64,000 nucleotides of DNA from Escherichia coli (lineage in GTDB: Bacteria > Pseudomonadota > Gammaproteobacteria > Enterobacterales > Enterobacteriaceae), in NCBI RefSeq assembly GCF_013315695.1, contig NZ_CP054353.1; one strand, given 5' to 3'. Each line of letters starts with the position of its first letter. Position 1 is the stretch's first letter. Below are positions 3,701 through 6,700 of the stretch, piece by piece. The position numbers were made by a program.

Positions 3701-6700
3701 AATCACCAATCGACAGCACACAAGCAAAGGCCAGCGCCTGCGCCAGTGGGCGTTTCAGGGCGCGCAGCTCCACTACTTTTAATCGTGACCAGCCTTCAAT
3801 GCCCAGCGACTGACACAACATACTGTAACGCGCGGTGATATCGCGCATCGGGTTTTCCAGCACTTTCAGCGCATAAGGGATGGCCATTAACGCATTGGTG
3901 AAAATCACGATGCCGTCAGCAGATTGTGGCAGGCCGATGGTGTTGTTGAGCAGTAAAAAGAAGCCCGTTGCCAGCACAATCCCCGGCATAGCGAGGATCA
4001 ACATGCCGCTCATCTCCAGCGCCTGGCCGGCCAGCATTTTTTGCCGTGCCCGCAATTCGCGGCTGCTCCATAGCAGCATCATGGTCAGCACTACGCACAA
4101 TACGCCTGCCGCCAGCGCAATACGCAACGAGGTCCACAGCGCCTGCCACAGCACCGGTTGTGCCAGCACTTCCGGCAACTGGCGATTTACCCCATCGACG
4201 ATCACCGCCAGTAACGGTGGCAGCAATAGCAGCAGCGCCAGCACAATTAACACCGTGTCGCAAATGCGGCTATGCAGACGATCGTCCGGGTCGCGCCAGC
4301 CTTGCAGCAGCGTGGTGCCTGGCGCAATGGCCTTACTCAATCGCTGACTCAGCAGCACCAGCCCAAGGCAACACACCATCTGGATCAGCGCAAGCATCGC
4401 CGCGCGGGCAGGATCGTAGTCGTAACTCAGCGCCTGATAAATAGCCAGCTCGATAGTGGTCGCCTGCGGACCGCCCCCCAGCGATAGCACGGTGGCGAAG
4501 CTGGCGAAACAGAGCATAAAGATAAGCGCAGCAACTGGCGGGATTTGTCGACGTAACCATGGCCATTCGACAAAGCGGAAAAAATGCCAGCCGCGCATCC
4601 CAAGTTGTGCGGCAAGTTGACGTTGTTCGCCGGGAATGTTTTCCAGTGCCTGGAGTAATAAACGGCTCGCCATCGGCAGATTAAAAAACACATGGGCCAG
4701 CAAAATGCCTTGCAGGCCGTAGGGCGAAAAGGTCCACTCCAGACCAAGTGATTGCCAGAGCGAGGCCAGCCAGCCCTGGCGACCATAGACGCTAAGAATG
4801 CCGAAAACAGCGACCAGCACCGGGAGGATCAAGGTCATTGCGCACAGACGCAACAGCGCCAGCCGACCCGGAAAGCGCCTGCGATAAAGGGCGCGGGCGA
4901 GGAATATCGCGGGTACGACAGAGAGCAGCGCCGAGAGAAACGCCTGCCAGAAGGAGAAGCGCACCACATGCCACAGATAGCTGTCCTGCCAGACTGCCAC
5001 CCAGTCACCCTGCGGCGCGTTCCACCACAGGGCGAGAAACGCCGCCAGCGCAACCGCCACCACAAGCGTAGCGGCGCTTACACCTGGAATTAACCAGCCG
5101 GGAATTAACGGCTGACGGCGCGTTGCCATTCGCTAATCCATGCCTGACGTTGTGCCGCCACTTCGGCTGGCGTGAACTCCAGCGTGGTTGCCGGTTTGGT
5201 CAATTGTTCAAACCCGGCAGGCAGCGTGACATTTGCCACCGGATACATCCAGTTGCCGGTTGGGATCGCATTCTGGAAAGCCGGAGAAACCATAAACTGG
5301 AGAAATTTTTGCGCCAGCTCCGGCTGCTTGCTGGCAGCGGTGCGGGCGGCGACTTCCACCTGCAGATAGTGACCTTCGCTGAAGTTCGCGGCGGCGTAGT
5401 TATCTTTCTTCTCTTCGAGAATGTGATAAGCTGGAGAGGCGGTGTAACTCAGTACCAGATCGCTTTCACCTTTTAAAAACAGGCCGTAGGCTTCGCTCCA
5501 GCCTTTGGTGACCGTGACCGTTTTCTTCGCCAGTTTCTGCCAGGCTTGTGGGGCGTCATCGCCATAGACTTTTTGCATCCACAACAGCAGGCCCAGCCCC
5601 GGCGTACTGGTGCGCGGATCCTGATAAATCACCCGCCAGTTTTGATCGCTCTCAACAAGCTCTTTCAGGCTTTGCGGCGGGTTTTTTAGTTTGTTCTTGT
5701 CATAGACGAAGGCGAAATAGCCGTAATCAAACGGTACGAAAGTGTCATTATTCCAGCCGCCGGGAACGTTAACGGTATCCGCTGCCACGCCGCTTTTGGC
5801 AAATAGTCCGGTTTTACTGGCGGCGTCTAACAGATTGTTATCCAGCCCCAGCACCACATCGGCTTTACTGTTTTTGCCTTCCATCCGCAGACGGTTGAGA
5901 AGCGAAACTCCATCTTCCAGCGCTACCAATTTCAGTTCGCAATTACAGTCGGCTTCAAAGGCTTTTTTGACCACCGGACCAGGCCCCCAGTCGGCGGCGA
6001 AGGAATCGTAGGTGTAGACGGTCAGAACGGGTTTAGCGAAAACGGGCGCTGTGCACAGCAACAGCAGGGGAAGACATTTTTTTAACACTTTGCACCTCAA
6101 AAAAGAGTGGCAAAGGACTTGAGAAGGAGCCTCAAATCCCTTCGCCGGCGTTATCCGGATCAGGTTCGACGGGTATTTTCTCAGCGCACGCGTCTGCGTG
6201 GCACCCCGTTGAGAACGGCGTTAGTGTAGTGATTTTGTTATCAACCAGCAATCCATAGAGAAGGCGTATTAAAAAAGCCAATATTCGTTCAGCTATCAAG
6301 GACGTATTTGCATAGCTGGGAAGCTTTGAACCGAAAGAATCCCTTAGCACAGTCAAAATCGGTAATGCAACGGCTTATTGCGTGAATGAGCGATTTTTGA
6401 CAGTATTCTTATTCAGGACGCTTATTCTGAGTTTTTAACTCAGAGTGGAGCTATCAGCATGAAAGTAAGAAACCCAGAACAGATTAGTATCTCTGCTAGT
6501 AATACCACTAAAGATCCAGGCCTTACTCATTCTCAGATTATGAGGATGTTTAACCTGGTCAAAAAGACCGAGAATATGAATCTCTTTGAAGCGCTATGGG
6601 AGACGTTACGCAATCTCTTCCGGTCAGATAAACATTCCCAGGCTGCGGCAAGGCAAATTCTGAAGGATGCATTTTATTTCCATAATAGTGATGACTACTC

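Follow-up and report, generated by a model that had tools for sequence, protein, structure and literature searches.

A thiamine pyrophosphate riboswitch in the thiBPQ leader of Escherichia coli, next to the espY2 islet

The 64-kb stretch of Escherichia coli DNA analyzed here (contig NZ_CP054353.1; the whole stretch is referred to as the window) contains, on its minus strand, the thiBPQ operon at 2837..6088, within which open reading frames (ORFs) and RefSeq annotation place thiB at 5105..6088, thiP at 3519..5129, and thiQ at 2837..3535. The thiB start codon is a GUG (6086..6088), annotated by the Prokaryotic Genome Annotation Pipeline (PGAP) in an identical genome and supported experimentally by a mutant (Grondin et al., 2024; PMC11487190); a mechanical list of ORFs begins thiB at a TTG at 6100, which falls within the Shine-Dalgarno (SD) region. 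The leader that precedes this codon is the subject of our analysis, as an examination of the DNA letters alone (the sequence-only reading) had placed a thiamine pyrophosphate (TPP) riboswitch there. Upstream of the thiB promoter lies a 1,010-bp islet (6254..7263) that carries espY2 (6459..7028, plus strand, divergent from thiB), and beyond it sgrR (7258..8916, minus strand), which was displaced from its ancestral position abutting the thiB promoter. Features of the leader are on the minus strand throughout.

We conclude that the element is almost certainly the E. coli thiB (tbpA) TPP riboswitch, which acts in cis as an OFF switch from the 128-nt 5′ untranslated region (UTR) of thiBPQ, an operon that encodes an ABC importer for thiamine and TPP. 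The sequence-only reading had proposed the Rfam TPP covariance model as a check, and when the whole window was scanned on both strands against 4,227 Rfam families, that model (RF00059) matched 6119..6218 with 66.1 bits, above its gathering score of 54.3. The match is full length (model positions 1–105 of 105), with an E-value of 9.1e-11 for the 64-kb window and 4,227 families and of 1e-12 for the local stretch. Its sole departure from the model consensus is the lack of the optional P3a stem, which is a variable element. In the cmscan alignment, the ligand-contacting cores of the pyrimidine-sensor arm (CUGAGA and ACCC) and the core of the pyrophosphate-sensor arm (CCUGAUC...GG.UAA..CC.GCG.AGGGA) fit the consensus. 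The motifs quoted in the sequence-only reading are all present, with GGGGUGCC at 6207..6200, the ligand-contacting CUGAGA, which is invariant in the Rfam consensus and contains G35 (6182), at 6184..6179, AUACCCGU at 6176..6169, and CCUGAUCCGGAUAACGCC at 6164..6147. The interval that it assigned to the riboswitch, 6128..6228, is offset from the model match by ~10 nt and holds both the entire aptamer, counted from P1 to P1 (6214..6130), and the -10 hexamer of the promoter.

Within the aptamer, the Rfam alignment and a fold in which P1 was forced place the 5′ strand of P1, UCUCAA (nt 3–8), at 6209..6214. The 3′ strand of P1, UUGAGG (nt 82–87), lies at 6130..6135 according to the alignment, our folds, and a published study of the K-12 leader (Berman et al., 2023; PMC10578472); it is the "substrate" strand that P1 has in common with a competing helix, anti-P1. 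The P3 apical loop, AGAC, is at 6192..6195 in a pairwise alignment with K-12, and the Rfam alignment places the P4/P5 pyrophosphate-sensor arm, ACCUGAUCCGGAUAACGCCGGCGAAGG, at 6139..6165. The 3′ end of the aptamer is 42 nt before the thiB GUG, so that the element occupies the 5′ UTR of thiB on the same strand, with thiP and thiQ following. A weak match to MIR8139 in the local Rfam scan (E = 0.83) and two ORFs that overlap the aptamer (6132..6356, minus strand, and 6107..6229, plus strand) were dismissed as chance.

Annotation of related genomes agrees with this assignment. The RefSeq chromosome NZ_LR898874, which is 100% identical to the window over 5900..7400, carries a PGAP "TPP riboswitch" annotation at identical coordinates. 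At the orthologous position in K-12 MG1655, a small RNA, SroA (75516..75608), is annotated; mapped through the alignment, this 93-nt stable RNA corresponds to 6124..6216 of the window and thus to the aptamer domain. A 184-nt segment comprising the promoter and leader is present at ≥95% identity in 5,398 of 5,426 complete E. coli genomes. The riboswitch is therefore already known, in that it has been annotated, characterized experimentally, and found to overlap SroA. As the element is one of three E. coli TPP riboswitches, its confirmation mostly validates the motif recognition of the sequence-only reading, and the sole nontrivial local detail is exactly where the islet lies, with the sgrR stop codon on one side and the thiB -35 hexamer on the other.

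The transcription start site (TSS) common to the thiBPQ mRNA and SroA is at 6216, as judged from the mapped 5′ end of K-12 SroA (75608) and the numbering used by Grondin et al. (PMC11487190). In Salmonella, 5′ rapid amplification of cDNA ends placed the TSS 129 nt before the tbpA start (PMC3511261). Seven nucleotides upstream of the TSS lies a -10 hexamer, TACACT (6223..6228), and 17 bp further upstream is a probable -35 hexamer, TTGCTG (6246..6251), assigned from its spacing to the mapped TSS. The combination TTGCTG-N17-TACACT occurs once in the window, compared with 0.01 occurrences expected by chance. In other Enterobacterales whose leaders extend far enough upstream, the homologue of the -10 hexamer is TACAAT, and the position of the -35 hexamer in the window agrees with the -35 zone (TTTCNN) of these species. 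A generic sigma-70 scan missed this promoter, which agrees with the consensus at only 7 of 12 positions. We therefore base the assignment on the TSS as mapped in published work and by the K-12 SroA annotation, on the spacing, and on the conservation of the -10 hexamer.

Folding of the leader predicts that P1, an extended anti-P1 helix, and an SD-sequestering helix have strands in common, which makes them a mutually exclusive expression platform. P1 pairs UCUCAA (nt 3–8) with UUGAGG (nt 82–87). The extended anti-P1, or antisequestering, stem consists of 16 predicted base pairs (-21.3 kcal/mol) between nt 71–87 (6130..6146) and nt 93–108 (6109..6124), the latter strand comprising an "invader" UCUCA and CCUUUGCC. 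Both strands were placed by folding, by comparison of 24 leaders, and by alignment, and the 5′ strand also by published work (PMC10578472). The sequestering stem (predicted -11.6 kcal/mol) pairs nt 102–112, CUUUGCCACUC (6105..6115), with nt 119–129, GAGGUGCAAAG (6088..6098), through CUUUGC/GCAAAG and CUC/GAG; folding and alignment define both strands, together with PMC10578472 for the first and a G121C mutant for the second. Included in the 3′ strand are the SD sequence, GAGG (6098..6095), and the initial base of the start codon.

These helices suggest how the switch would operate. After transcription starts at 6216 from the weak sigma-70 promoter, the arms of the aptamer would fold first. Without TPP, the linker UCUCA, which is identical to the 5′ strand of P1, would displace that strand, allowing the extended 16-bp anti-P1 to form between nt 71–87 and nt 93–108. 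As anti-P1 uses CCUUUGCC, the SD sequence and GUG would be accessible and ThiB would be translated. With TPP, the aptamer would be locked with P1 closed and the linker freed, and CUUUGCC(A)CUC would pair with GAGGUGCAAAG. By covering the SD sequence together with the initial base of the start codon, the resulting hairpin would block 30S binding, with the mRNA level dropping secondarily after the translational block. In such a scheme, the 93-nt SroA would be a stable aptamer fragment of the thiB leader.

The functional reference for this model is the K-12 sequence studied in two papers (PMC10578472; PMC11487190), and it is from those experiments that we take, by analogy, the dependence on ligand, the control at the level of translation, and the function of the linker. 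Between the TSS and the thiB GUG (6088..6086), pairwise alignment finds two adjacent differences from K-12, at 6195 and 6194 (nt 22–23). These change the P3 apical loop from GUAC in K-12 to AGAC in the window and leave the flanking 5-bp stem, CACGC/GCGUG, unchanged. From this sequence comparison, we infer that the AGAC variant behaves like K-12. The numbering of Grondin et al. fits the window only with +1 at 6216, and that of Berman et al. is offset by two, with +1 at 6218. With these registers, the published mutant sites land on the expected bases, G35 at 6182 in CUGAGA, G121 at 6096 in GAGG, and U130 at 6087 in GUG, and the Berman P1 5′ strand (UCUCA, nts 5–9) and essential linker (UCUCA, nts 95–99) correspond to 6214..6210 and 6124..6120.

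In K-12, direct binding of TPP and TPP-dependent repression have been shown, and the response is lost upon mutation of the aptamer, SD sequence, or sequestering stem (PMC10578472; PMC11487190). Specifically, G35C abolishes TPP regulation, G121C disrupts the SD sequence, and U130A abolishes translation, with the 30S toeprint located at C144; TPP lowers this toeprint (PMC11487190). A mutation that weakens the sequestering stem breaks the TPP response, and the antisequestering stem was demonstrated experimentally (PMC10578472). The thiB promoter itself does not respond to TPP (PMC10578472; PMC11487190). Basal expression is reported to be low and regulation modest, at 2- to 4-fold (PMC11487190).

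We also compared the leader with those of other species. Homologous loci came from one DNA-pattern scan of species-representative genomes, whose pattern specified the 3′ core of the aptamer and nothing else. At least 120 loci matched, mostly TPP riboswitches of non-enteric bacteria, and the conservation of the P4/P5 arm among them is imposed by the pattern itself. Twenty-two Enterobacterales loci were among the matches listed, which did not include Salmonella, Citrobacter, or Shigella. In 21 of these, thiB is downstream of the aptamer; at the E. albertii locus, the sequence ends before a ThiB match can be scored, and the same leader and the beginning of thiB are visible. The 22 leaders were folded together with those of the window and K-12, and 23 sequences entered the alignment. 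Despite variation in loop length and sequence, both competing hairpins can form in all 24 leaders, with predicted energies of -18.9 to -28.6 kcal/mol for extended anti-P1 and -8.5 to -12.6 kcal/mol for the sequestering stem. The CCUUUGCC segment, which both hairpins share, is invariant, and the loops vary freely. In the alignment, each of the two stems is 97.8% paired, compared with 25–66% when the partner strand is slid by 1–3 columns. Each stem shows one compensatory swap: in Plesiomonas, a U-A pair of anti-P1 is replaced by G-C, and in three species (Dickeya, Acerihabitans, Plesiomonas), G-C takes the place of the A-U pair adjoining the SD sequence in the sequestering stem. We regard this pattern as consistent with the switch model and not as a separate proof of it, which the published mutagenesis provides.

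The thiB leaders of other Enterobacterales (Enterobacter, Klebsiella, Dickeya, Pectobacterium, Edwardsiella, Yersinia, Plesiomonas) thus resemble that of the window in having the same two competing hairpins, invariant CCUUUGCC and GCAAAGUG, the TACAAT -10 hexamer, and a shared gene order of sgrR, riboswitch, and thiB, although no sgrR was found in the sequence examined for Yersinia and Plesiomonas. They differ in the lengths of the P3 and anti-P1 loops and, in some cases, in having a GGAG-type SD sequence instead of GAGG. Loci of Dickeya (L122), Brenneria (L092), Acerihabitans (L025), and Yersinia (L029) have 25–70 nt insertions in the P3 arm, and the Yersinia locus has ~40 further nt in the anti-P1 loop. 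The logic of P1, anti-P1, and the sequestering stem is retained in these four despite the insertions.

Four considerations weigh against the switch as we describe it. First, the predicted minimum free energy (MFE) structure of the full ligand-free leader (-48.4 kcal/mol) combines a short anti-P1 with the sequestering stem, leaving the SD sequence paired, and the extended anti-P1 state (-46.4) lies 2 kcal/mol above it. Since the SD sequence is paired at equilibrium even without ligand, thermodynamics alone does not reproduce the ON state, and we rejected unconstrained MFE folding of the full leader as evidence of switching, as it yields no state in which the SD sequence is accessible. Second, covariation in the expression platform is thin, with most pairs invariant and shuffle controls significant for only a single swapped pair. 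Third, the two K-12 studies disagree over an mRNA-level or Rho component (PMC10578472 vs PMC11487190). Fourth, the published ligand-binding and expression data concern K-12, rather than the AGAC P3-loop variant or the islet-bearing promoter context. With regard to the first point, extended anti-P1 is the predicted MFE structure for nascent transcripts of 110–120 nt, before the 3′ half of the sequestering stem is made, which fits co-transcriptional decision-making. The ON state is thus explained by length-dependent folding and the published co-transcriptional data. The full-leader folding is compatible with, but does not prove, a kinetic co-transcriptional switch with low basal expression, and it agrees with the modest regulation reported for K-12.

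The riboswitch in the window can be placed beside the E. coli TPP riboswitches that have been studied. The K-12 thiB/tbpA riboswitch (RF00059; SroA, b4762) is its ortholog, with the same P1/anti-P1/sequestering architecture, GUG, SD sequence, and operon; apart from the P3 loop, the two differ upstream of -38, where K-12 has the 3′ end of sgrR and the window has the espY2 islet. The E. coli thiM riboswitch, which the authors of the thiB studies compared with thiB directly (PMC10578472; PMC11487190), has the same class of aptamer and is also a translational OFF switch that sequesters the SD sequence. It differs in controlling the thiMD operon of salvage kinases, in the sequence of its expression platform, and in an mRNA-level effect that requires at least 34 codons and Rho (PMC11487190). 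The thiC riboswitch shares the ligand and aptamer family but is larger and has an internal Rho-binding site and a regulatory pause that give dual transcriptional and translational control (PMC11487190); neither a Rho-binding site nor a pause is evident in the 128-nt thiB leader.

Could the switch act mainly on transcription or mRNA level, through an intrinsic terminator, Rho, or RNase E, rather than on translation initiation? TPP represses transcriptional lacZ fusions by 1.6- to 3.9-fold, even when the start codon is also mutated (PMC11487190), and the same paper cites a proposal that Rho is involved at tbpA. However, the GC-rich hairpin followed by a U-tract that would be expected before the start codon of an attenuator riboswitch was not found: the sequestering hairpin is followed by GUGUUAAAAAAA, which has no U-run, and a terminator scan of 6070..6216 found no terminator. 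In vitro transcription gave only the full-length product at all TPP concentrations, arguing against intrinsic termination, and repression was not relieved by bicyclomycin (PMC10578472). The toeprinting experiments, in which TPP directly lowered the 30S signal (PMC11487190), and the conserved pairing, which is aimed at the SD sequence and start codon in all 24 leaders, point instead to translation initiation. Effects on mRNA level are most simply explained by the mRNA being left untranslated, and we regard primary control at the level of transcription or mRNA as unlikely.

It has also been possible to view SroA (~93 nt, 6216..6124) as a free-standing small RNA (sRNA) that acts in trans, with riboswitch activity secondary. 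The K-12 locus is annotated as an ncRNA, and in Salmonella, SroA has been detected by Northern blotting and is induced by antibiotics, and sroA deletion has small phenotypes (PMC2698986; PMC3511261), among them a small fitness defect in mice (PMC2698986). Against this, SroA lacks the features of an Hfq-type sRNA: it has its TSS in common with the thiB mRNA, no terminator-like site was found in the leader, and it ends within the anti-P1 loop, shortly past the aptamer, as expected of a nuclease-resistant aptamer remnant. The regulatory role of SroA is cited as Hfq independent (PMC3511261). There is no validated trans target in the literature, and the deletion phenotypes could stem from deregulated thiBPQ, as the authors note (PMC3511261). 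Moreover, the aptamer and switch helices fully account for the strong sequence conservation, and a role in trans does not exclude riboswitch function. SroA is most simply a stable remnant of the aptamer, and we consider it very unlikely that action in trans is its main role.

The cis-acting riboswitch also has to be considered in relation to the islet upstream. Colinearity between the window and K-12 breaks off after 6253 and resumes at 7264; in place of the intervening 6254..7263, K-12 has one base, which belongs to the sgrR stop codon. As a result, the C terminus of SgrR changes from PPDP-TGA in K-12 to PPDPE-TAG in the window (7258..7263), with one added residue and a new stop codon. The islet has a GC content of 0.39–0.46, compared with 0.52–0.62 in the flanks. 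Its gene, espY2, assigned by RefSeq annotation, is the type III secretion system effector gene ECs0073 of O157:H7 Sakai, and a search of 5,426 E. coli genomes found the segment in ~1,033. Relative to the TSS, the junction falls at -38, with 2 bp separating it from the -35 hexamer downstream.

Among the 22 Enterobacterales outgroup loci listed, 20, that of E. albertii included, have the end of sgrR ~70–110 nt ahead of the aptamer core and no intervening gene; at the other two (Yersinia and Plesiomonas), sgrR was not found in the sequence examined. Neither K-12, E. albertii, nor any other sampled Enterobacterales locus that retains sgrR has the islet, and the E. albertii junction matches K-12 across the sgrR stop codon and -35 hexamer. 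As no gene separates sgrR from the aptamer in these outgroups, comparison of the loci identifies the islet-free state as ancestral and the islet as a derived insertion. The sequence-only reading had suggested that the insertion left the riboswitch intact and displaced whatever had lain upstream of the thiB promoter. Both parts of this suggestion are borne out: the alignment with K-12 finds the core promoter and leader untouched, and K-12 together with outgroup synteny identifies the displaced neighbor as the 3′ end of sgrR.

When the islet junctions were inspected by eye, neither a target-site duplication nor an inverted repeat stood out convincingly. The 189-aa EspY2 gave no Pfam domain match. 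Another E. coli (L003, 1060..1896) carries at this site a gene for a 278-aa pentapeptide-repeat protein, of which EspY2 is a C-terminally truncated relative (71% amino acid identity over 183 aa); the islet of the window is ~530 bp shorter than the one with this longer gene. The site thus has at least three alleles, with no gene, a short (189-aa) gene, or a long (278-aa) gene.

That the islet inactivated or uncoupled the thiB promoter, leaving the aptamer a relic that regulates nothing in the window strain, is extremely improbable. The junction is just 2 bp from the -35 hexamer of an intrinsically weak promoter (7/12 consensus positions) that now adjoins AT-rich foreign DNA and the divergent espY2 promoter region. 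Nevertheless, neither the core promoter (-35 hexamer, spacer, and -10 hexamer) nor the TSS, the leader, or the reading frames of thiBPQ are damaged, and the same islet junction is found in 1,033 genomes, including O157:H7, at 95–100% identity and with an undecayed leader. The islet allele and leader have coexisted long enough for ~5% divergence.

If the riboswitch functions in the islet-bearing context, how might the islet influence it? In the ancestral arrangement, a terminator would not fit between sgrR and the thiB promoter, so transcription of sgrR could continue into the leader; an sgrR-sroA-thiBPQ unit has been predicted computationally, without support from quantitative PCR (PMC8743547). 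Within the islet, the minus strand has predicted terminator-like hairpins, one at 7134..7117 (z = -2.15) and another at 7070..7054. The hairpin at 7116..7135 scores on both strands and is ~90 nt past the espY2 stop codon (7026..7028). A third hairpin, directly after the sgrR stop codon (7224..7258, minus strand), is no better than shuffled sequences (z = -0.07), and the proposal that the islet supplies a terminator would rest mainly on the predicted hairpin at 7134..7117. In addition, the -38 to -60 zone of the thiB promoter is AT-rich foreign DNA that includes a T6 tract.

One possibility, which we consider rather unlikely, is that the islet rewires thiBPQ transcription in about one-fifth of E. 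coli genomes and, separately, that the SroA fragment acts in trans. If so, 1 kb of DNA with antisense espY2 and up to three terminator-like hairpins would end read-through from sgrR, and the AT-rich DNA at -38 to -60 could serve as an UP-like element or as a silencer bound by H-NS. Islet strains (O157:H7 and others) and K-12-like strains would then have different basal expression of the importer and hence a riboswitch of different dynamic range.

Whatever its effect on expression, the horizontally acquired effector islet entered a position that is effectively the only neutral one in a compact sgrR-promoter-riboswitch-thiB junction that is conserved across the sampled Enterobacterales, at a cost of a new stop codon and one residue in sgrR, with the core promoter and switch spared. 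If the altered upstream context changes thiBPQ expression, the locus would be a small example of an islet insertion that modulates a riboswitch-controlled core operon.

Elsewhere in the window, SgrS/sgrT (8984..9210) is followed by leuD (9244..9849, minus strand), and setA, the 1.2-kb sugar-exporter gene that lies between them in K-12, is missing. The Rfam scan also matched PssrA at 35619..35709 (plus strand, 102 bits); this family is described as "plasmid-encoded Shigella sRNA A," and its presence in an otherwise chromosomal window may mark an insertion sequence element or a plasmid-derived insert. Further matches above the gathering score were the leucine operon leader (13969..14118, minus strand), STnc40 (41356..41425, plus strand), naRNA4 (CssrE; 41829..41905, plus strand), and tp2 (57599..57712, minus strand).

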